Shown here piece by piece: positions 3,226 to 51,934 of a DNA stretch of 64,000 nt (its first letter is position 1; each line of letters begins with the position of its first letter). This DNA is from a virus (lineage: Duplodnaviria; Heunggongvirae; Uroviricota; Caudoviricetes), in IMG/VR virus record IMGVR_UViG_2529292906_000009, positions 3,303-67,302 of that record, one strand, 5' to 3'. The translations under genes were made by a program, and so were the position numbers. A model generated the notes under the pieces. That model saw nothing but the letters and a program-made list of their open reading frames with translations, did no database searches and was not told the origin of the DNA.

Positions 3226-3446
3226 TATCGGTTAACCAGTTCCTTGTTGGTGGAGTCCAGGGTGTCAAACAGGGATGCAAATTCAGCATCCAGCGCCGCT
3301 TTTTTGTAGGCTTCGAAAGTAGCCTTGCTGACAATTACTGCTGGCTCACGGCCTCTGCGGGTGATTTCAACCTCTTCCCCGGCTTCAACATTGTTGAGCA
3401 CTTCAGAAAGGTTGCCACGCGCGGTACGGAAGTTAATGGATTGCAT
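3225..3446 (-). CDS. phd: Phd antitoxin
   Basis: 73-aa product [32 protein letters not shown]... recalled as P1 Phd; immediately upstream of doc. Confidence 0.95.
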
Positions 3447-6466: not shown

Positions 6467-7372
6467 CTATATTTCCAGACATCTGTTATCACTTAACCCA
6501 TTACAAGCCCGCTGCCGCAGATATTCCCGTGGCGAGCGATAACCCAGCGCACTATGCGGATGCCATTCGTTATAATGCTCGAACGCCTCTGCAAGGTTCT
6601 TTGCTGCCGTTAACCCGTCTGGTTTGGGCATGATACTGATGTAGTCACGCTTTATCGTTTTCACGAAGCTCTCTGCTATTCCGTTACTCTCCGGACTCCG
6701 CACCGCCGTGTTCTTCGGTTCAAGTCCCAACATCCGGGCGAACTGGCGTGTTTCATTAGCCCGGTAGCATGAACCATTATCCGTCAGCCACTCCACTGGA
6801 GACGACGGAAGATCGTTGCCGAAGCGGCGTTCCACCGCTCCCAGCATGACGTCCTGTACTGTTTCACTGTTGAAGCCGCCGGTAGTCACCGCCCAGTGCA
6901 GTGCCTCACGATCACAGCAGTCCAGCGCGAACGTGACACGCAGTCTCTCTCCGTTATCACAGCAGAACTCGAACCCGTCAGAGCACCATCGCTGATTGCT
7001 TTCTTTCACGGCCACTCTGCCTGTATGTGCCCGTTTCGATGGCGGTACAGCAGGTTTTCGCTCAAGCAACAGCGCATTCTGGCGCATGATCCGGTAAACA
7101 CGTTTGGCATTGATCGCAGGCATACCATCAAGTTCTGCCTGTCTGCGAAGCAGCGCCCATACCCGACGATAACCATACGTGGGCAGCTCTCCGATAACAT
7201 GGTGTATACGGAGAAGCACATCCGTATCATCAGTGTGACGACTGCGGCGGCTATCCATCCAGTCATCGGTTCGTCTGAGAATGACGTGCAACTGCGCACG
7301 CGACACCCGGAGACAACGGCTGACTAAGCTTACTCCCCATCCCCGGGCAATAAGGGCGCGTGCGCTATCCAC
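6467..7372 (-). CDS. insD: IS2 transposase InsD (OrfB, DDE)
   Basis: 301-aa ORF recalled as IS2 InsD; overlaps insC in the -1 frame. Confidence 0.9.
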
Positions 7373-7695
7373 TTTTTTGCCCGTCCATATTCAACGGCTT
7401 CTTTGAGGAGTTCATTTTCCATCGTTTTCTTGCCGAGCAGGCGCTGGAGTTCTTTAATCTGCTTCATGGCGGCAACAAGTTCAGAGGCAGGAACAACCTG
7501 TTCTCCGGCGGCGACAGCGGTAAGACTTCCTTCCTGGTATTGCTTACGCCAGAGAAATAACTGGCTGGCTGCTACACCATGTTGCCGGGCAACGAGAGAG
7601 ACCGTCATCCCCGGTTCAAAGCTCTGCTGAACAATTGCGATCTTTTCCTGTGTGGTACGCCGTCTGCGTTTCTCCGGCCCTAAGACATCAATCAT
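7330..7695 (-). CDS. insC: IS2 InsC (OrfA, HTH)
   Basis: [26 protein letters not shown]... recalled as IS2 InsC, 121 aa. Confidence 0.9.
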
Positions 7696-36590: not shown

Positions 36591-37451
36591 ATGAATCAAT
36601 CATTTATCTCCGATATTCTTTACGCAGACATTGAAAGTAAGGCAAAAGAACTAACAGTTAATTCAAACAACACTGTGCAGCCTGTAGCGTTGATGCGCTT
36701 GGGGGTATTCGTGCCGAAGCCATCAAAGAGCAAAGGAGAAAGTAAAGAGATTGATGCCACCAAAGCGTTTTCCCAGCTGGAGATAGCTAAAGCCGAGGGT
36801 TACGATGATATTAAAATCACCGGTCCTCGACTCGATATGGATACTGATTTCAAAACGTGGATCGGTGTCATCTACGCGTTCAGCAAATACGGCTTGTCCT
36901 CAAACACCATCCAGTTATCGTTTCAGGAATTCGCTAAAGCCTGTGGTTTCCCCTCAAAACGTCTGGATGCGAAACTGCGTTTAACCATTCATGAATCACT
37001 TGGACGCTTGCGTAACAAGGGTATCGCTTTTAAGCGCGGAAAAGATGCTAAAGGCGGCTATCAGACTGGTCTGCTGAAGGTCGGGCGTTTTGATGCTGAC
37101 CTTGATCTGATAGAGCTGGAGGCTGATTCGAAGTTGTGGGAGCTGTTCCAGCTTGATTATCGCGTTCTGTTGCAACACCACGCCTTGCGTGCCCTTCCGA
37201 AGAAAGAAGCTGCACAAGCCATTTACACTTTCATCGAAAGCCTTCCGCAGAACCCGTTGCCGCTATCGTTCGCGCGAATCCGTGAGCGCCTGGCTTTGCA
37301 GTCAGCTGTTGGCGAGCAAAACCGTATCATTAAGAAAGCGATAGAACAGCTTAAAACAATCGGCTATCTCGACTGTTCTATTGAGAAGAAAGGCCGGGAA
37401 AGTTTTGTAATCGTCCATTCTCGCAATCCAAAGCTGAAACTCCCCGAATAA
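36591..37451 (+). CDS. repA: Plasmid replication initiator RepA
   Basis: 286 aa; recalled match to P1 RepA; flanked by incC and incA iterons. Confidence 0.9.
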   Translation: MNQSFISDILYADIESKAKELTVNSNNTVQPVALMRLGVFVPKPSKSKGESKEIDATKAFSQLEIAKAEGYDDIKITGPRLDMDTDFKTWIGVIYAFSKYGLSSNTIQLSFQEFAKACGFPSKRLDAKLRLTIHESLGRLRNKGIAFKRGKDAKGGYQTGLLKVGRFDADLDLIELEADSKLWELFQLDYRVLLQHHALRALPKKEAAQAIYTFIESLPQNPLPLSFARIRERLALQSAVGEQNRIIKKAIEQLKTIGYLDCSIEKKGRESFVIVHSRNPKLKLPE

Positions 37452-37844: not shown

Positions 37845-39056
37845 ATGATGATGAAACGCGATTACGGCGGTGTCGGCACCATAGCTCTTCGTGCAAGCGC
37901 ATTACTTAAGGCCATGAGTCAGGATATTGAAGATCAGCGCAAAGAGTTCAATCAGACCGAGTATTATCAGACGTTCACTCGTAACGCTGTGGCAAAGTTG
38001 CCGAAGCTGAGCCGCCGCATTGTGGAGCAGGCCATCAAAGAGATGGAAGATGATGGGTACCAGTTCAACAAGAAACAGGTCGGTAACGTTGAACAGTACG
38101 CGCTGACCATCCAGAACGTCATTGATATCTATGCCCACCGTAAGATCCCAAAATATCGCGACATTCACAAATCGCCTTACGTTATTTTTGTCGTAAACCT
38201 GAAGGGTGGCGTATCCAAAACGGTTTCCACAGTCACGTTGGCGCACGCTCTGCGTGTGCATCAGGATTTACTGCGTCACGATCTGCGCATTCTGGTAATT
38301 GACCTTGACCCTCAGGCATCCAGCACAATGTTCCTCGACCATACTCACAGTATTGGTTCCATCCTGGAAACCGCCGCGCAGGCGATGCTGAACGACCTGG
38401 ACGCGGAGACGCTACGCAAAGAGGTGATTCGTCCGACCATCGTTCCTGGCGTAGACGTGATTCCAGCCTCTATCGACGATGGCTTTGTTGCCAGCCAATG
38501 GAAAGAGCTGGTTGAAGAGCATCTTCCCGGACAAAATCAGTACGAAATCCTTCGACGCAATATCATTGATCGTGTTGCGGATGATTATGACTTTATCTTT
38601 ATTGATACCGGTCCACACCTGGATCCGTTCCTGCTCAACGGTCTGGCGGCCAGCGATTTGCTGCTTACCCCTACCCCACCAGCCCAGGTTGACTTCCACT
38701 CAACACTGAAATATCTCACCCGTCTGCCAGAAATGCTGGAGCAACTGGAGGAGGAAGGCGTAGAACCGCGTTTAAGCGCCAGCATTGGTTTTATGTCGAA
38801 GATGACCGGCAAGCGCGATCACGAGACATCACACAGCCTTGCGCGTGAGGTTTACGCCAGCAACATTCTGGACTCTTCTCTACCTCGTCTGGATGGATTT
38901 GAGCGATGCGGCGAGTCTTTCGACACCGTAATCAGTGCCAACCCGCAATCGTATCCAGGCAGTGCAGAGGCGCTGAAGAAGGCTCGAACCGAGGCCGAGC
39001 GTTTCACTAAGGCTGTGTTTGATCGAATTGAGTTTGTTAGGGGTGAGGCGGCATGA
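37845..39056 (+). CDS. parA: Partition ATPase ParA (type Ia)
   Basis: 403 aa; NLKGGVSKT deviant Walker A; N-terminal HTH extension; parB follows. Confidence 0.9.
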   Translation: MMMKRDYGGVGTIALRASALLKAMSQDIEDQRKEFNQTEYYQTFTRNAVAKLPKLSRRIVEQAIKEMEDDGYQFNKKQVGNVEQYALTIQNVIDIYAHRKIPKYRDIHKSPYVIFVVNLKGGVSKTVSTVTLAHALRVHQDLLRHDLRILVIDLDPQASSTMFLDHTHSIGSILETAAQAMLNDLDAETLRKEVIRPTIVPGVDVIPASIDDGFVASQWKELVEEHLPGQNQYEILRRNIIDRVADDYDFIFIDTGPHLDPFLLNGLAASDLLLTPTPPAQVDFHSTLKYLTRLPEMLEQLEEEGVEPRLSASIGFMSKMTGKRDHETSHSLAREVYASNILDSSLPRLDGFERCGESFDTVISANPQSYPGSAEALKKARTEAERFTKAVFDRIEFVRGEAA

Positions 39057-40018
39057 AAAAAATAGTTTCCCGTGGACGAGTGCTGGGCAAGAATAGCTCC
39101 GAGTTTGCTCGCATGCTTGAAGGCAGTGAAGGCACCAAAACCTTTACCCTAAAATCTGGCCGCCAGGCTAAATTTTTGCTTACCGTTGTGCTGAGTGGTG
39201 AGATTGAGTCGCGCACGTTCGTTGACCCGGCAGTTAACGGCCGCGATCAGTCTCTGCTCACCCCTGAGTCGGTAAGCGATATTTCCCGCACCATTAAATT
39301 GCAACAGTTCTTCCCGGCTATCGGTCGTATGGTTGGGGAGCGCATTGAGGTATTGGACGGATCACGTCGCCGCGCTGCGTGTATCTTCAATGAAACGAAA
39401 TTTGAGATTCTGGTGACGAAAGATGAGATCAGCCTGGCGGATGCACGCCAGCTGGCCATTGATATCCAGACAGCCCGCGAACACACCCTGCGCGAACTGG
39501 GTAAACGCTTCGAGGTTATGTATGGTAAGAGCATGACCAAAGAAGAGATCGCCCGCGCTGAGAACATTTCAAAGGCTAAAGTTACGCGCGCGTTCCAGGC
39601 GGCAGCGGTGCCGGATGAGATGATTGCTGTCTTCCCTGTTGCCAGCGATCTCGCCCTGCCAGATTACCAGTTACTGCTCCAGATCTCCGAGGATGCCAAC
39701 GCTAAAAGCGTGCCTATTGAAGAGCTGGTTGATACGGTGCGCGAACGAATTGCAGAGACTGAGGGCGCGAAAGAGGATAAAGCGAAGATACTGGCTATCT
39801 TCAAAGCGGAAAGCAAAAGCCTGAAGCCCGCGCCGGTTAAATCTGTGGTGGTTGAGAAGCTGCGAGACTTCTCTGACCGTCGCCAATATGCTCGAAAGAA
39901 GTCCGATCCGAAAAAACGGGTTGTCGCCTACGAGTTCTCCAGACTCCCGTCTGAAGTGCAAACTGAAATTGACGAAGCAATAAAAAAAATCATTGGGAAA
40001 ATGTCTGCTGGGGAATAA
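39053..40018 (+). CDS. parB: Partition protein ParB
   Basis: 321 aa; ILDGSRRR ParB box; start overlaps parA stop. Confidence 0.85.
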   Translation: MKKIVSRGRVLGKNSSEFARMLEGSEGTKTFTLKSGRQAKFLLTVVLSGEIESRTFVDPAVNGRDQSLLTPESVSDISRTIKLQQFFPAIGRMVGERIEVLDGSRRRAACIFNETKFEILVTKDEISLADARQLAIDIQTAREHTLRELGKRFEVMYGKSMTKEEIARAENISKAKVTRAFQAAAVPDEMIAVFPVASDLALPDYQLLLQISEDANAKSVPIEELVDTVRERIAETEGAKEDKAKILAIFKAESKSLKPAPVKSVVVEKLRDFSDRRQYARKKSDPKKRVVAYEFSRLPSEVQTEIDEAIKKIIGKMSAGE

Positions 40019-45091: not shown

Positions 45092-45601
45092 ATGGGGCAC
45101 AATAACACTAAGGGAAACCGTAAATTTATTAAGGGCCGCTATACTGCCAACGCGGCCAAAGGTGAACGACTGGTATCTTCTGAATTCCAGCTCACTTTTG
45201 CTGGCCATGAAGATATCAGCGTACTGGTTCGCACGTCGCAAATCCCTGAAATGACCCGCGAGGATGTGGAGGACTATGGTCCGAATGGTGTGAAGTTCAA
45301 CCAGCACGGTCCAATTCGAAACTCTGGGGAAATCCAGGTCCAGTGCGTGGAGACTATCGAAGGTGATATTCTTCAGTTCATTAAGGATCGCATTGCGGCG
45401 AAGGACTATGTTGATATCACGATGGCTGCGACCCCTGAATCCAAATCTTCCGGGGTTAACGCTGTGACAAAAGCTGCTACAACAATTGAAATGTTGGACT
45501 GCAAAATCTACAGTGATGCAATCGACTTTAGTACCGAAGATGTGACTGCCGCTGTGCGCCCGTCACTTCGTATCGTCTACAACTGGATTGATTGGGATTA
45601 A
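45092..45601 (+). CDS. Late protein, 169 aa
   Basis: ORF in track; followed by a strong terminator. Confidence 0.5.
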   Translation: MGHNNTKGNRKFIKGRYTANAAKGERLVSSEFQLTFAGHEDISVLVRTSQIPEMTREDVEDYGPNGVKFNQHGPIRNSGEIQVQCVETIEGDILQFIKDRIAAKDYVDITMAATPESKSSGVNAVTKAATTIEMLDCKIYSDAIDFSTEDVTAAVRPSLRIVYNWIDWD

Positions 45602-45620
45602 GAGTCATCCCTTGTATTTT

Positions 45621-45644
45621 AAAGCTCCTACGGGAGCTTTTTTT
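45621..45644 (+). terminator. Rho-independent terminator ending the head/tail late operon
   Basis: AGCTCC-TACG-GGAGCT hairpin followed by T7. Confidence 0.7.
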
Positions 45645-45772
45645 ATAACTATTTTATATAAAAATGCATCGATAACATTGTCTGGAGTTTTATGTTAGAT
45701 TATTAATGTTCTAATAAACTACAATTATTGAGGTAGATGTTTGTGCCTGTACTGTTAAAGGGGGACTCTAAA

Positions 45773-46369
45773 ATGGCTGTGATTCCAATGTCGTACTCCC
45801 CGGGTACTGTCGCTCGTCGATTTTCGATCCTGGACGGAGTTACCATCCAGGGTGTGCTTTACCAGGTTATATGGGATTCCAAAACCCCATTTGCAGCTGT
45901 AATAGAGGCTGCGCCTTCTGTTATCGATGGTGATATGCGCCATAAGGTTGTCGCTACTCTTGAACTTCAACGTCGTCCGCAGCTTGAAGGCGTACTGGTA
46001 AGGAAGTTTTGGGAGGATAGCGATGTTGCCCAGATTGAAGGTATTGTGGTTGATGGAACTGTCCGGGATGTAGGTTTAGCTACTTTTGTTTACGAAACCG
46101 TAGCCTCAAAAGCTGGTGTTGTTTTGCTCAGTGATAATGAGCAATACGAAGGTGGAAAAGCTCTTTGGCAACACATCGCCCGTCGCTCTTCCGAGCTAAA
46201 AGTGTTTATCCTCGACACCGATGCCGCTCAGTATTACCCGTTTGACGGCGAACGTGTTTGCTATGACGGGGTAAGTATTCCTGAATCCGAGATATGGAGT
46301 GAACACCCAGATCGAAGTAAGCATGGGGTTGTTCTGGTCGCTGAATCCATAACTGGAAAGGCGGCATAG
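45773..46369 (+). CDS. Hypothetical protein, 198 aa
   Basis: Second ATG (45773) has AAGGGGGA RBS; no convincing domain. Confidence 0.5.
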   Translation: MAVIPMSYSPGTVARRFSILDGVTIQGVLYQVIWDSKTPFAAVIEAAPSVIDGDMRHKVVATLELQRRPQLEGVLVRKFWEDSDVAQIEGIVVDGTVRDVGLATFVYETVASKAGVVLLSDNEQYEGGKALWQHIARRSSELKVFILDTDAAQYYPFDGERVCYDGVSIPESEIWSEHPDRSKHGVVLVAESITGKAA

Positions 46370-46659
46370 CAGTAAAAAATTCCTTACCCCTTAAAAGGGG
46401 AGAGGGTTAATCTACGTATGCTAAGCATAGATGTGGCCTCAGATTAATGTTAAGCGTCTTGCCGGACGCGTAATGTTATCTGGGGCTTTCTTCTGTTATT
46501 TGTTTGAGTGCTAGGTAGCAAAGAGAGCTAGTATTCATCAGGCAAATCTATCAATAAATAGCGTTAGTTTTTGTTGTGTGTATGTTTCTTTATTGTTATT
46601 GTGCTGTTTGTTTTTTAGGCGGCACAATTCCTATAATCTATAGAATAAAGGAAGTATAT

Positions 46660-46947
46660 ATGGCTGATGTACGCATTACTTGCATTACCCTCTCCGGCTC
46701 GCAATCAATCCATGAGCATATTACTCATGTGGGAAGTCCTCAATTTAATACTGGCAATGGGAAATGGACTGTTGAGCAGGTGATTAATGCTATTGATAAT
46801 AATCTCCATACATTCTATGTAACAGATAATGCAGGTAATCGTGTAGAAGTTGGGGTCGTTAATCCTGGTAATGGTGGAAGGCAGTTTATTAGAACGTATG
46901 CAGACAATCGATGGAATAATAATTTACTATCGCTACCAATCTGTTAA
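46660..46947 (+). CDS. DUF3892-like small protein, 95 aa, with its own sigma70-like promoter and terminator
   Basis: MADVRITCI...HEHITHVG...FYV.D..G..VEVGVV motif pattern; perfect TATAAT at 46632-46637; AAAGGAAG RBS. Confidence 0.55.
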   Translation: MADVRITCITLSGSQSIHEHITHVGSPQFNTGNGKWTVEQVINAIDNNLHTFYVTDNAGNRVEVGVVNPGNGGRQFIRTYADNRWNNNLLSLPIC

Positions 46948-46956
46948 TGTAATTTT

Positions 46957-46992
46957 ATAAAAAAGGCTGCAACCTCTGTTGCAGCCTTTTTT
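46957..46992. terminator. Bidirectional rho-independent terminator
   Basis: AGGCTGCAAC-CTCT-GTTGCAGCCT 10-bp stem flanked by A6 and T6. Confidence 0.75.
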
Positions 46993-47017
46993 CAGCCATT
47001 ATGACTGAGATAAGCCA

Positions 47018-48073
47018 CTATAAACTCTGAACAAGACGTTCAATTGCTGCACCATATCTTTCTAATGGTTCATTATTGATTTGTGGCTCAGTGTCATGGA
47101 TCTGATATCTGCCGGGTTTTATATCAAATAGAGGTCTTCCTAGATGGGAAGATACTATAGCTACGGAATGGTTATCTGGCACAGTAAACGTTTTTAAATT
47201 TCCGCCTTGGAACGCTGTTGGTTTATTCGTCCGCAGATTTTCAGCTCTATCCCTGATTTCGTCGAACATTGCCGAAAACGCTTTACTTGCTCGTTTGTCA
47301 TACTCTGTCGAACGATTAAAAACTAGAGAATGAATGACAGGAACCGCTAGACCAAACTGTTGACACCGATCGTAAAAGTTAACAGAACGATAATCGTTTT
47401 GTACTCCAACGCCATAAACCAACTGGCTTAGGTTATCCACTGCTCGAGCCGAAGAACCATCACTTGAGCAAGGTATTATAATTGCATTTGCTGCTATCAG
47501 TGATAGTTCGGTATAGGCAGAGAAACTGGGGTTGCAATCAATAAAGCAAATGGTTTCTTCGATACCTTGTTGTTGTGCACATGCAACAAGCAAATCTCGT
47601 AGCCACAGGTGGATGCTTTTCCATGAGTCAACTGGTAAGTTTACGCTGCTTAACTGATTGATTACTTGCGCCTGAACTTCCAGGCTTGGGTCGCCTGCAA
47701 TCAAAAATACATTGTCAGGGACATGCCCGTTAATTTCAGAGACATGAATTAAGAAACTTGTTTCTGAACCGGTAAGCATGTGGGGGCTGCGAGTTCTTCT
47801 GTCAAAGTACCCACCGACAGTTTTTCGTTGTTGAATTAAGCTCGCGAGGTTAGCAGCACCAGTACCGTTACCGCCGAGCAATATTTCAGATAAGTTAGCC
47901 TGCGGACACATATCTGCAAAAATAATACGCTTTTCTGGATTTTGCCTTGCGTATTCACAGGCCATAGCGAAAGATAAGTAGGTCTTTCCTACGCCACCTT
48001 TATTATTCCAAATAGCATACGATTTCATGGTATCCCCGGCGTTATCTGCTGTTTGTGTGCCAGCATAAGTCAT
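47018..48073 (-). CDS. ParA/MinD-family ATPase, 351 aa, no adjacent ParB-like partner
   Basis: KGGVGKT deviant Walker A, DMCPQANLS Walker A', ICFIDCNPS Walker B; GGAG RBS before ATG 48073. Confidence 0.7.
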   Translation of the reverse strand: MTYAGTQTADNAGDTMKSYAIWNNKGGVGKTYLSFAMACEYARQNPEKRIIFADMCPQANLSEILLGGNGTGAANLASLIQQRKTVGGYFDRRTRSPHMLTGSETSFLIHVSEINGHVPDNVFLIAGDPSLEVQAQVINQLSSVNLPVDSWKSIHLWLRDLLVACAQQQGIEETICFIDCNPSFSAYTELSLIAANAIIIPCSSDGSSARAVDNLSQLVYGVGVQNDYRSVNFYDRCQQFGLAVPVIHSLVFNRSTEYDKRASKAFSAMFDEIRDRAENLRTNKPTAFQGGNLKTFTVPDNHSVAIVSSHLGRPLFDIKPGRYQIHDTEPQINNEPLERYGAAIERLVQSL

Positions 48074-48336
48074 TATGCATCTCCATTACTATCCATGAAT
48101 TGAGTCAAAAAATATGTAAAAGTAGCAATGTATCACTCTTTTACTCATTATAAACGTTACAAGTTGTGATGGTTAGCTGTGTTTTTATCAGTACAAGTTT
48201 TGATCTGGCTTTGGGTTTTTATATATGGATATGTCTCAAAGATGCCCTGCAAAAGCGATCGCTAACTGTAAAAAATCAGATTGCATCTCCGACCTCAAAC
48301 TGAAAACGCCAGGTGACTCCAGATTAGAGCAATCTA

Positions 48337-49181
48337 TCACCCTCTGAATCCTGCCGGTATACCCCATTGTTCGTTATCTTTATTTTTGGCTAAAACCGCA
48401 TTAAGAGCTTCGTTTACCGTCATGCAATGCGGCAGATTATCGAAGTTTGATATCCCGCCAATATCAGGAGAACGCTTGTCCTTCAGGTAAGCATATTTCC
48501 GCGCTGCCGCCTCTACTTTCTGCTTGAACTCATGTTTTTGAGCGCGTTTTTTGGATAACCGCAGATTGTCAGCCTTTGCTTTTGCCTCAGCGATCCATGA
48601 AGTCAATTTTTTGAGTCTGGTCGTTCCGGCACCGCCGGAAACTGATCTTTTTGTTTTTTAACTTGTGACTTCTTATTCTTTATTGCCACGTCATCCTGAC
48701 AGGGGGAGGGGGTATCATTTTGACATGGGGGTGTGGATAAAAAATTAAATAAAGCCAATGTCTTAGCGAGAACAGCTTTAACCTTGGTTGCCGCTGAAGA
48801 GATCTTTAATTTGCTTTCAATCAGCGCATTTTTGGCTTGTTGTGCGAAGGCCAAAAAGGATGGTGTAAACCGGTACAGGTTAGCGCGACGTTCACGGTGA
48901 TCGCCGATAACAATCTCTACAGACAGGATTCCTTTGTTTACAGCTTCACGGAATGCACGAACGACGGTTGATTGGCTATAACCAGTTTCTGCCGCGATCA
49001 GGCGGTGAGGCTTGTGAATGAAGTATTCACTGGTTGTTGCCGCGAGATTTGCACATTGCGACAGGATATGCCAGGCGCTACGGGATAGACCGGAGTGTGT
49101 TACAAAGCAGGCCAATTCATAGCCAGAAAAAGTAAAATCGCTCATCGTTATACAGCTCAGGAAAGTGACTTTAGCCAGCAT
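48337..49181 (-). pseudogene. repL: RepL-like lytic replication gene, apparently split into 192- and 89-codon ORFs at a T6/A6 run (48607-48612)
   Basis: Two abutting ORFs; downstream one starts at a TTG inside the homopolymer with no RBS; combined length about 281 codons as recalled for P1 RepL. Confidence 0.4.
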
Positions 49182-49785
49182 TACAATGCTGGTGGTTCTT
49201 ACTACGTCTGTTAGCGCGTTGCCGCGACAGGTACCAGCACACCAGCATCAAGCAATCGCTTCATCAGCCACTGCTGACCCTTGCCGGTTATACGAGTCGT
49301 GAAAGAAATCCTGCTTCCATTGCTTGTATCGATCACGGTTTCTTTAAGGGTGAAATACCCACGGGATATGTATTCTTGTTTGGGGACGTTCCTGCGTTCA
49401 CCGGTTGCGATCAGAATTCCGTTATCACGCAACCAGGTGAAGAGATAGTTTTGGCCCAGGCCGAGCACTTTGGCATAGTTGCCGATTAGAACCCCGCTGG
49501 CGGTAGCAACGCGTTCGGCGAATTCGACTTTAGGTGCATCCATAAGCATTTTTTGCTCCAGCCGTTGCTTTTGCTCTGCCAGGTCGGCAGCCAAACGGAG
49601 AGCTTCAGGGAGACTCTGCGGAATAGCAGGTTGTAATCTTCCGGCTCGATAGTCGATAAATGTCTGGTTTACCTTCAGCCGAAACGCGGGAGAAATCCAG
49701 CCTGCGTACTCCACAGCGAGCAATTCATGGGCAAAAGTGCCGCCGCCACGGCCTTCGAACGAAACTATGCAATTCTGCATAGTTT

Positions 49786-50494
49786 CTTTTTGTGCACAGA
49801 AAACCCCCAGCTAGGCTGGGGGTTCCGGAAAGCTTTCAGCTTTGAGCCAGTTATTAAAACCCCTTTTGATTTGTTAAAACACCTTGCGGTCTGGCAACTG
49901 CAAGTGTCAAACAAGAAATCAAAAGGGGGTCCCAATGGGGAACGAAAAGAGCTTAGCGCACACCCGATGGAACTGTAAATATCACATAGTTTTTGCGCCA
50001 AAATACCGAAGACAAGTGTTCTACAGAGAGAAACGTAGAGCAATAGGCAGTATTTTGAGAAAGCTGTGCGAGTGGAAAAGCGTACGGATTCTTGAAGCTG
50101 AATGCTGTGCAGATCATATCCATATGCTTGTGGAGATCCCGCCCAAAATGAGCGTATCCGGCTTTATGGGATATCTGAAAGGGAAAAGCAGTCTGATGCT
50201 TTACGAGCAGTTTGGTGATTTGAAATTCAAATACAGGAACAGGGAGTTCTGGTGCAGAGGGTACTACGTCGATACGGTGGGTAAGAACACGGCGAAGATA
50301 CAGGATTACATAAAGCACCAGCTTGAAGAGGATAAAATGGGAGAGCAGTTATCGATTCCCTATCCGGGCAGCCCGTTTACGGGCCGTAAGTAACGAAGTT
50401 GGATGCAAATGTCAGATCGTGTGCGCCTGTTAGGGCGCGGCTGGTAAGAGAGCCTTATAGGCGCATTTGAAAAACCTCCGGCTATGCCGGAGGA
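49786..50494 (+). mobile_element. IS200 (IS200/IS605 family), about 0.7 kb; ends approximate
   Basis: tnpA inside; terminal hairpins CCCCCAGC-TAGG-CTGGGGG (49801-49820) and CCTCCGG-CTATG-CCGGAGG (50475-50493). Confidence 0.8.
49935..50393 (+). CDS. tnpA: IS200 transposase TnpA (HUH Y1), 152 aa
   Basis: MGNEKSLAHTRWNCKYHIVFAPKYRR... with HxH motif (HIHML); recalled match to IS200 TnpA. Confidence 0.9.
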   Translation: MGNEKSLAHTRWNCKYHIVFAPKYRRQVFYREKRRAIGSILRKLCEWKSVRILEAECCADHIHMLVEIPPKMSVSGFMGYLKGKSSLMLYEQFGDLKFKYRNREFWCRGYYVDTVGKNTAKIQDYIKHQLEEDKMGEQLSIPYPGSPFTGRK

Positions 50495-50792
50495 TATTTA
50501 TTTCAAGCTCTTCGATGAGCTGTTTTGCTGACAGCGTTCTTAGCCATTGAGCTGGCGCTTTATGGGCACCGAGTCCGCTCGCTCTGTGTAGAGCATTAAG
50601 GTTGTAACGGCCAGCGCGGTCGGTCGTAATTTCAACACCACAAATAACGGGCAGAGTGGTTGAAGGATCGACATTTTGATGAAGGTTTGATATATTCATA
50701 TCCGCATTGAATGTTTGTTGCATTTTTTCTCCAAATTTGCATCAACCTTCAATCACCAGCTCGAAATGGTGATTCTTTGCACTTAGAAAACG

Positions 50793-50887: not shown

Positions 50888-51934
50888 TTAACCTATTGCT
50901 ACTGGTTTTAACAAACCAGCATCAAGTAGCTTGCGAGTTAACCACTGCTGGCCTTTACCCGTTAATTGGGGCGTCAGCCGTATCTGGTAGCCATTTTCAT
51001 CATCCAGCACCACTTCTTTCACCGTGAAATACCCGGCGTTGATGTACTGTTGGCGCGGTACGTTTTTGCGCGCACCAAAAGCCATGAGAATGCCGTTCTG
51101 GCGCAACCATGAGAAAAGGGCGTTTTGCTTAAGTCCAACGACCTTTGCAAAGTTCCCGATCAGGATTCCATTAGCCACTGATACCCGGTCGGCAAAATCG
51201 ACTTTAGGGGCTGCGGCCACCAGCTGTTGTTCCAGCTGCATTTTCTGTTCTGCCAACTCGGCAGCCAGGCGTAGAGCTTCTGGTAATGTTTGGGGGATCG
51301 ATGGGGCAGGGGAGTTTGCCTGCTGCAATTCTTCCAGTTTGTCGATCAGCGAACGGCGGACCGCTTTCGATTCGCGAGCAGCAACGCGCAGGGCTTGTTT
51401 GTATGTCATTACTATAACTACCTGATCCGCTCCACCTTTTTTCTTATCCATAGGGGTTACGAAGATTTCGTAACCCTCCCCATCAAGCTCATCCTTAACT
51501 CTGGCAATGAAATCATTGTTGCGAACTGGTTTTTCGCTACATAATTTCCGTGCCTCATTGACCATCTTTAACAGTGTCAGGCTGTCGATTGTGTCTCCGG
51601 TGTTGGGGATAATATTCACGGCTGGTGCTGGCGTAGCTGACGTAACAGGTGCTGGTTTTTCAACATTCAAATTATTACCGGTCATTCTATGTGCCTCCTT
51701 TCTCATTTCTGCTGCCACTGTTGCGTAACGTAGACGTCCTTGTTCAATCAAATAATCCCTGATCTCGGCTATCAGTAGCCTGTTGATCACAGCCTTATCT
51801 GTTCGGGTATAAAAACGCCTGGTTATCATGAAATAGTTAGCAATTGCGCCGGGGATCTCCCGTGTCGGCATACAGGCAGTATGCAAAGCGATCGCTTCGG
51901 CTATTTCATTACGGGTGACGAGAGGTTTTTTCAT
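50888..51934 (-). CDS. ant: Antirepressor-like protein (N-terminal Rha-like region, C-terminal KilAC domain), 348 aa
   Basis: C-terminal APKVDFADRVSVANGILIGNFAKVVGL...QQYINAGYF KilAC motif paralogous to kilA C-terminus; immI-like position. Confidence 0.6.
   Translation of the reverse strand: MKKPLVTRNEIAEAIALHTACMPTREIPGAIANYFMITRRFYTRTDKAVINRLLIAEIRDYLIEQGRLRYATVAAEMRKEAHRMTGNNLNVEKPAPVTSATPAPAVNIIPNTGDTIDSLTLLKMVNEARKLCSEKPVRNNDFIARVKDELDGEGYEIFVTPMDKKKGGADQVVIVMTYKQALRVAARESKAVRRSLIDKLEELQQANSPAPSIPQTLPEALRLAAELAEQKMQLEQQLVAAAPKVDFADRVSVANGILIGNFAKVVGLKQNALFSWLRQNGILMAFGARKNVPRQQYINAGYFTVKEVVLDDENGYQIRLTPQLTGKGQQWLTRKLLDAGLLKPVAIG

Follow-up and report, generated by a model that had tools for sequence, protein, structure and literature searches.

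We found that a P1-like phage-plasmid carries, in a known cargo hotspot, a gene for a ParA/MinD-type ATPase that has no partition partner and that belongs to a family mobile as a single gene. DNA searches identified the element as P1-like from a 64,000-nucleotide (nt) stretch (hereafter, the window), corresponding to positions 3,303 to 67,302 of the IMG/VR virus record IMGVR_UViG_2529292906_000009. The gene (47018..48073, minus strand) encodes a stand-alone ParA/MinD-fold protein of 351 amino acids (aa) with a conserved 336-aa core from M16 (48028), and it converges with a gene for a 95-aa DUF3892 protein. In textbook accounts, ParA-type ATPases are motors that position DNA and cargo and depend on a partner; a family lacking one would suggest another use of the ATP switch, probably in competition between mobile elements. 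Our preferred explanation, held tentatively and at somewhat less than an even chance, is that the ATPase is a lysogen-made factor that may serve the prophage in conflicts between mobile elements, through the exclusion of phages or plasmids. It draws on the position of homologues behind repressor genes in prophages.

The ATPase family and the partition question

By its motifs, the ATPase is a member of the ParA/MinD (deviant Walker A, SIMIBI) superfamily. Its deviant Walker A motif reads NNKGGVGKT, with K10, G11, G12, G14, and K15 invariant in 115 sequences. The Walker A' and Walker B aspartates and the ParA/MinD fold are present, and all catalytic and dimer-sandwich residues are invariant among the homologues, leaving the motifs for ATP binding, dimerization, and hydrolysis intact; the full set of ParA motifs claimed in the preliminary description was thereby confirmed. 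A structure model built with 115 homologues was confident (predicted local distance difference test [pLDDT], 91; predicted template modeling score [pTM], 0.91), and it replaced a single-sequence AlphaFold2 model with a pLDDT of 33. The closest structures to the model were McdA and ParA. Pfam recognizes only the N-terminal P-loop region, and NCBIfam gave only sub-threshold Walker A matches to the ParA, BcsQ, and RepA models. A literature search found no functional study of the family.

Homologues are nearly all 333–338 aa long and have no fused domains. Longer homologues (385–446 aa) were considered for such domains and rejected: their extensions are N-terminal, mutually unrelated, and look like mis-called starts. 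Regarding the start of the gene in the window, nine of nine enterobacterial copies keep the Shine–Dalgarno (SD) sequence, the ATG, and a 15-codon extension that varies in sequence but not in length, and more distant homologues begin at the position that corresponds to M16. The start that gives 351 aa is probably correct.

The family is compact, as a library clustered at 50% identity contained only 96 representatives at E ≤ 1e-30. It nevertheless occurs, sporadically, in Acidobacteriota, Planctomycetota, Chloroflexota, Desulfovibrionaceae, many Proteobacteria, Patescibacteria, and several Archaea, and these distant bacterial and archaeal copies are 50–61% identical to the E. coli ATPase (52–61% for those of archaea and acidobacteria). 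Enterobacterial copies are 87–92% identical in protein and only 73–76% in DNA, with saturated synonymous sites and a nonsynonymous divergence (dN) of 0.06–0.10. This combination of high protein identity with diverged DNA and saturated synonymous sites indicates that the wide conservation is due to constraint and not to a recent spread.

The ATPase is not a partition protein. The absence of a ParB-like neighbor, stated in the preliminary description, was borne out: we found no ParB-like gene, helix-turn-helix (HTH) domain, or repeat array near the ATPase in the window. The region 45600–48400 contained no tandem repeats, with two-copy matches at chance level only, and centromere-like repeats were accordingly rejected as a candidate feature. 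Likewise, no conserved partner gene was found across 70 + 26 related loci. The real replication and partition genes of the element, namely repA (36591..37451), a type Ia parA with HTH_54 (37845..39056), and parB (39053..40018), lie 8 kb from the ATPase, whose similarity to the element's own ParA is limited to a 67-aa Walker A match. A second, unrelated ParA does exist in addition to parAB, but it is not really the unexpected feature that it was first taken for, since it represents a recurrent cargo family found just after cI in lambdoid-type prophages. Homologues occur in chromosomes and in lambdoid- or D3-type integrated prophages or temperate phages, and partition would therefore not be needed there.

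In comparison with ParA/Soj/McdA-type (type Ib-like) ATPases, about 247 of 336 residues align and about 85 residues are extra here. The ATPase differs from them in having no ParB/McdB-like partner, centromere, or HTH, and the members of its family lie in integrated prophages or stand alone in chromosomes, with conservation across phyla much tighter than expected for an accessory gene. The full ParA fold and the similarity to McdA and ParA would also suit a ParB-less maintenance or positioning ATPase that tethers the element or another cargo to the nucleoid, and the authors who described Pseudomonas phage phi297, which carries a homologue, speculated on lysogen stability (PMC3564109). Given the lack of centromere-like repeats and of a partner gene, the presence of the element's own parAB, and prophage and chromosomal loci that need no partition, we consider such tethering very unlikely.

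Gene context in prophages and a possible role in conflicts between elements

Phage lambda carries rexAB in the slot directly after cI. We found ATPase homologues in the corresponding place: in phage phi297, a 71%-identical gene immediately follows the repressor gene on the same strand, and in a lambdoid prophage of Serratia marcescens an 85%-identical copy does likewise. In 17 IMG/VR prophage contigs, the ATPase is downstream of at least three unrelated repressor families (including HTH + peptidase S24 and short CI-type proteins). A 35%-identical copy in Klebsiella phage ST11-VIM1phi8.2 follows the same order, with cro/cII/O divergent, then cI, a small open reading frame (ORF), the ParA-like gene, and gam-bet-exo. 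In three prophage loci scanned for promoter and terminator consensus sequences, none was detected in the stretch from the repressor gene to the ATPase. Judged from this gene order, the ATPase of the lambdoid-type prophages examined is part of the same transcription unit as the repressor gene. A DUF3024 gene (~113 aa) lies between repressor and ATPase in some prophages (locus L018, 5360–5701; loci L027–L029, 1228–1572).

We compared the cassette limits in nine enterobacterial copies, comprising eight non-P1 copies and the P1-like copy. Similarity between contexts begins at the SD sequence and stops a few bases past the stop codon. The eight non-P1 copies have a common terminator, AACCCGGCC-N6-GGCCGGGTT followed by a T-run, and the P1-like copy has a different one. 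Because similarity is limited to the segment from the SD sequence to the terminator, the mobile unit in enterobacterial copies is a ribosome-binding site, ORF, and terminator without a promoter, and the cassette is placed where repressor transcription could carry over it. In the lambdoid copies, this arrangement resembles that of lambda rexAB and 933W stk, which share the slot directly after the repressor, the same strand, and a terminator of their own. The analogy is one of position only: there is no sequence or fold relationship, and the P1-like copy is at another locus.

Beyond prophages, the 126 immediate neighbors in 70 bacterial and archaeal loci had nothing in common except IS1595 and IS1 transposases (10) and a few defense genes, namely those for two GmrSD-like proteins, a type III methylase, ShosA, HEC-05, and a PADLOC candidate. 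The ATPase family is thus stand-alone and mobile as a single gene.

In the explanation that we prefer, the ATPase would be co-transcribed with cI in prophages and would therefore be made in lysogens, whereas in the P1-like element it would be made from its own weak spacer promoter or by read-through from repL. An ATP-dependent dimer switch may bind a conserved target, either DNA or a component of the incoming element, and this binding would keep out superinfecting phages or rival plasmids and so benefit the resident prophage. A wider version, which we regard as possible but doubtful, is that the ATPase represents a new and widespread single-gene immunity determinant, housed in the rexAB slot in phages and in the rlf hotspot in P1-like plasmids, acting on a universally conserved target and sister to an ATPase–HEPN abortive-infection module.

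Several observations weigh against a role in exclusion. The position after cI is circumstantial, as lysogenic-conversion genes unrelated to exclusion also sit there. The P1-like ATPase follows a lytic-phase operon rather than a repressor gene, and we only infer its expression in the lysogen. Defense genes make up ~5% of the immediate neighbors, which is at best a weak defense-island signal, and most neighbors are housekeeping genes. PADLOC-DB v2 (5027 models) yielded no match at E ≤ 0.01 for the ATPase, nor for DUF3892 or a 210-aa ORF at 45737–46369. Such strong constraint is unusual for defense proteins, which often evolve fast. Finally, the P1-like copies are 98.5–100% identical and therefore reflect a single acquisition. 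As the family is absent from current defense catalogues, it is nonetheless a concrete candidate for a cheap test, and its placement after cI, together with a HEPN-linked sister clade (see below), makes a functional test reasonable.

A related possibility, in which plasmids rather than phages are the target, is an anti-plasmid incompatibility factor like ParI. It would make competing low-copy plasmids unstable by titrating their ParA/ParB or disturbing its regulation, and would thereby protect the resident element. ParI, an orphan ParA encoded on a genomic island of Pseudomonas putida KT2440, destabilizes IncP-7 plasmids and needs its Walker A motif for this (PMC9178275, PMC8544851). The two proteins, compared by description only, are alike in being orphan ParAs on mobile elements with an intact KGGVGK[ST] motif, and both would act in conflicts between replicons. 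Self-interference by the ATPase is unlikely because the type Ia ParA of the element that carries it is very different. However, ParI is induced by plasmid carriage, whereas the family described here resides in prophage repressor operons and is common in integrated prophages and in organisms without obvious plasmid-competition pressure. Interference also normally needs similarity to the target ParA, and the near-invariance of the family across phyla would be left unexplained. We therefore consider a ParI-like role unlikely.

The most distant group recovered, a sister clade 39–41% identical to the ATPase, came from cyanobacteria, Frankia, Micromonospora, Thiotrichaceae, Luteolibacter, and Gallionellaceae. 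In 10 of its 12 loci, a RiboL-PSP HEPN gene (~200 aa) follows 4–19 nt downstream of the ATPase (loci L105–L109 and L112–L116, at about 7036–7650 in most). The HEPN profile had no match in the window or in any locus closer than this ~40%-identity clade. Phage-encoded orphan antitoxins are a known strategy, as exemplified by T4 Dmd. A ParA/Soj–HEPN dyad has been predicted to be a toxin–antitoxin pair with the ATPase as antitoxin (Anantharaman et al. 2013, PMC3710099); the sister clade has an architecture of this type, in its case with a RiboL-PSP HEPN gene, whereas the clade of the window (43–100% identity) is solo and never accompanied by a HEPN gene. By extension from the dyad, a solo phage copy might neutralize HEPN toxins or related abortive-infection effectors of the host and thereby aid establishment or induction. 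We judge this distinctly unlikely: solo copies far outnumber dyads among the recovered loci, many of them without phage context; no HEPN partner was present in the window or in the Enterobacterales and Pseudomonas loci examined, and identity to the dyad ATPases is only ~40%; and expression from a repressor operon fits a function in the lysogen better than one in the infection phase.

The bplB–repL hotspot of P1-like phage-plasmids

The interval between bplB and repL, in which the ATPase lies, is a known cargo hotspot of P1-like phage-plasmids. On the left, it is bounded by bplB with its terminator (45092..45640, plus strand; terminator 45621–45640) and, on the right, by repL (48337..49181, minus strand). 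The flanks (bplB/pmgG and repL/kilA) are 98–99% identical to those of P1, P7, RCS47, SJ46, and relatives, while the interior has no full match in them. The same interval contains pmgF (plus strand), rlfB (minus), and rlfA (minus) in P1, a 210-aa ORF and two small genes in SJ46, only a mokW/hok toxin locus in other isolates named P1, and yet another gene set in 673R5; the content of P7 differs as well. Earlier work named it a hypervariable, low-GC interval (PMC9603915, "region 5: rlfA, rlfB, pmgF"), and RD-3 of PMC6906374 is the same variable interval. In the window, it holds a PmgF-related gene, a hok/sok relic, and two low-GC accessory genes (ATPase and DUF3892). The GC content is 36–45% in the hotspot versus 47–52% in the flanks, and 39–43% in the cargo versus 47.8% in the window. 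The cargo thus has the features of moron or hotspot genes, being present or absent among near-identical relatives and atypical in base composition, and P1-like elements can dispense with the hotspot content or exchange it.

P1-like phage-plasmids spread resistance genes in E. coli, and the present content adds one more defined cargo variant to their hotspot. The ATPase–DUF3892 module was found at 98.5–100% identity in at least 40 PLSDB plasmids. Among 5426 complete E. coli genomes, 39 contained the cargo, always on a plasmid of roughly P1 size, and 517 contained repL; from these counts, ~7% of P1-like elements carry this variant.

The position of the ATPase is that of P1 rlfA/rlfB (P7 rapA/rapB), between repL and bplB and in the orientation of repL. 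We examined the ATPase as a backbone orthologue of rlfA/rlfB and rejected this, because RlfA, RlfB, and PmgF had no detectable similarity to either the ATPase or DUF3892 (BLASTP, E > 2). The alignment that the preliminary description had proposed as a check thus gave no sign of backbone orthology for either gene, and the two are alternative cargo, not orthologues of the rlf genes.

The gene is separated from repL by a 263-bp spacer (48074..48336, minus strand; 36% GC) that includes the SD sequence GGAG (48081–48084) and contains no terminator-like site. A perfect TATAAT at 48147..48152 (minus strand), 74 nt upstream of the ATPase ATG, is a candidate −10 box by consensus match only; it is accompanied by a weak −35 (TAACCA) at 17 nt, and the pair falls below the promoter-scan threshold. 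Just upstream of the candidate −10 box is a pair of 13-nt direct repeats, TACAAGTT[G/T]TGAT (48158–48170 and 48192–48204, 34 nt apart), which may be operators or a product of chance.

Upstream of the spacer, the replication genes are interrupted. Relative to plasmid NZ_CP080229, in which repL is intact (281 aa), the gene here has lost 1 nt of an A-run (A7 to A6, about 48606–48612) and is split into ORFs of 192 and 89 aa; either the frameshift is genuine and inactivates repL, or the homopolymer was misread in sequencing. An IS200-family (Y1) transposase gene (49884–50393, plus strand) breaks up kilA, which survives as an N-terminal KilA-N piece (50430–50723) and a piece with the KilA-N C-terminal part and ANT (49211–49780). 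If these lesions are real, the lytic replication operon upstream of the ATPase would be defective in this element, and the case for dependence of the ATPase on kilA–repL in this copy would be weaker. Farther upstream of kilA, a second antirepressor-type gene (348 aa, ANT/KilAC domain, 50888–51934) corresponds to the P1 ant1/ant2 region.

The preliminary description had the ATPase end the kilA–repL operon. On such a reading, the ATPase gene would be a lytic-phase one, transcribed together with kilA–repL from the C1-controlled promoter, with a replication-linked role in positioning or organizing replicating phage DNA. Its orientation, the absence of a terminator-like site after repL, and its rlfA/rlfB position agree with that, and ParA-type ATPases do position DNA and large cargos (PMC9178275). 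Membership of the operon is accordingly possible, but a 263-bp AT-rich spacer with a TATAAT stands in front of the gene and the operon is damaged. In addition, the ATPase is unlike RlfA and RlfB, it lies in the repressor operon and not in the replication operon in every lambdoid-type prophage examined, and the hotspot content is dispensable and interchangeable. We therefore regard a lytic-phase positioning role as quite improbable, and retain a factor made in lysogens as the preferred explanation.

The remaining contents of the hotspot concern its left part. The preliminary description covered 45773–48073 and described two genes, which are there as reported, but 45773 is the start of a third that it passed over: a 198-aa gene (45773..46369, plus strand; 210 aa from an upstream ATG at 45737) with a PmgF-like N-terminus (residues 4–66 are 43% identical to P1 PmgF). 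Beyond this N-terminus, searches gave no family match, and one database source labels an 88% homologue as "N-acetyltransferase". This gene is far commoner in P1-like plasmids than the ATPase/DUF3892 pair. Next to it, ~90 nt before DUF3892 are 94–96% identical to the mokW/hok leader/sok of other P1 variants and constitute a leader/sok relic of a hok/mok/sok-type locus (46401..46495, minus strand) from which the hok coding part is gone. The Rfam sok score at the relic was only 20 bits, under the gathering score; no Rfam family scored above its gathering score over 45600–48400, and weak Thr_leader and STnc matches corresponded to terminators. The relic resembles a scar left when cargo was exchanged, and a sok-like antisense promoter, now orphaned, might still work within it.

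The DUF3892 gene and its relation to the ATPase

The DUF3892 gene (46660..46947, plus strand) is a separate solo moron. Its identity, proposed in the preliminary description, is well supported: PF13031 matched at 5.3e-15 over profile positions 1–71 of 71 (56.1 bits versus a cut-off of 22.3), and phrog_8224 matched at 1.9e-38. The mechanical ORF spans 46576–46947; the real start is the ATG at 46660, 5 nt past the SD sequence AAGGAAG (46648–46654), and RefSeq annotates the same 95-aa gene in an identical plasmid. The promoter that had been described as perfect does contain a perfect TATAAT (46632..46637, plus strand), ending 22 nt before the ATG, but this −10 box is a consensus match only; the best −35, TTGTTT at 18 nt, is weak, and the candidate falls below the promoter-scan threshold. 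The hexamer TATAAT is depleted in the window (15 on both strands versus 28.5 ± 5.6 expected from shuffles). A 26-nt imperfect palindrome, TTCCTATAATCTATAGAATAAAGGAA (46628–46653), covers the −10 box and the SD sequence and may be an operator or due to chance.

The ATPase and DUF3892 genes converge on a bidirectional intrinsic terminator (46959..46992), in agreement with the preliminary description. Its arms (46959–46973 and 46978–46992) form 15 perfect pairs around a GC-rich core (46965–46973/46978–46986), flanked by A6 on one side and T6 on the other, with energies of −22.4 and −23.9 kcal/mol on the two strands (z −5.4 and −6.0). The terminator scan did not call this hairpin, and we suspect that A:T extension of the stem consumed the T-tail. 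As it is the single hairpin between the convergent genes, DUF3892 does not have a terminator of its own, contrary to what had been suggested.

Adjacency, the common terminator, and constant co-occurrence in ~40 plasmids might suggest that the ATPase and DUF3892 form a two-gene system of sensor and ATPase switch. A shared operon is ruled out because the genes are convergent, and the plasmid copies, at 98.5–100% identity, amount to one acquisition. The DUF3892 profile (111 homologues) adjoins the ATPase only in P1-like loci, that is, in one lineage; it had no match in ~95 other ATPase loci, and no ATPase was called beside 12 other DUF3892 loci. Because the distribution outside P1-like elements shows no co-occurrence, we rejected the functional pair, and a two-gene system appears exceedingly unlikely. 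The two are independently acquired accessory genes, DUF3892 probably acts independently of the ATPase, and each merits separate study.

The moron-like nature of DUF3892, noted from the outset, is consistent with its low GC, candidate −10 box, and terminator, and with its solo occurrence elsewhere at prophage ends, in satellite-like elements, and in islands. A literature search found no experimental work on DUF3892. Its fold is predicted to sense RNA or ribosomes and to be a three-stranded meander plus helix, like dsRNA-binding and ribosome-hibernation domains, with a link to defense (10.1101/2025.01.14.632903; 10.1101/2022.04.27.489752, citing Burroughs and Aravind 2020). The window copy resembles the genes in those predicted defense contexts in its full-length Pfam match and in being a small solo gene on a mobile element, and differs in having no fused or adjacent effector. 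The pairing of a Salmonella homologue with an FRG-domain gene agrees with those predictions.

A tblastn search against 50,697 phage records gave no match to DUF3892, and homologues (68–73% identity) were found in three non-P1 settings. In E. coli (loci L117–L121, 5001–5288), a 73%-identical solo gene lies in the opposite orientation in a capsid-encoding satellite-like element; this element includes AlpA, D5_N primase, SSB, major capsid, and head decoration genes, and abuts lambda-type tail genes and a truncated capsid gene. In Proteus, the homologue is at a prophage end beside terminase genes. In Salmonella (loci L122–L125, 5001–6358), it lies directly upstream of an FRG-domain gene, in an island that also holds a DEAD/ResIII helicase and TrbL, where DUF3892 and FRG may form a two-gene defense-type module.

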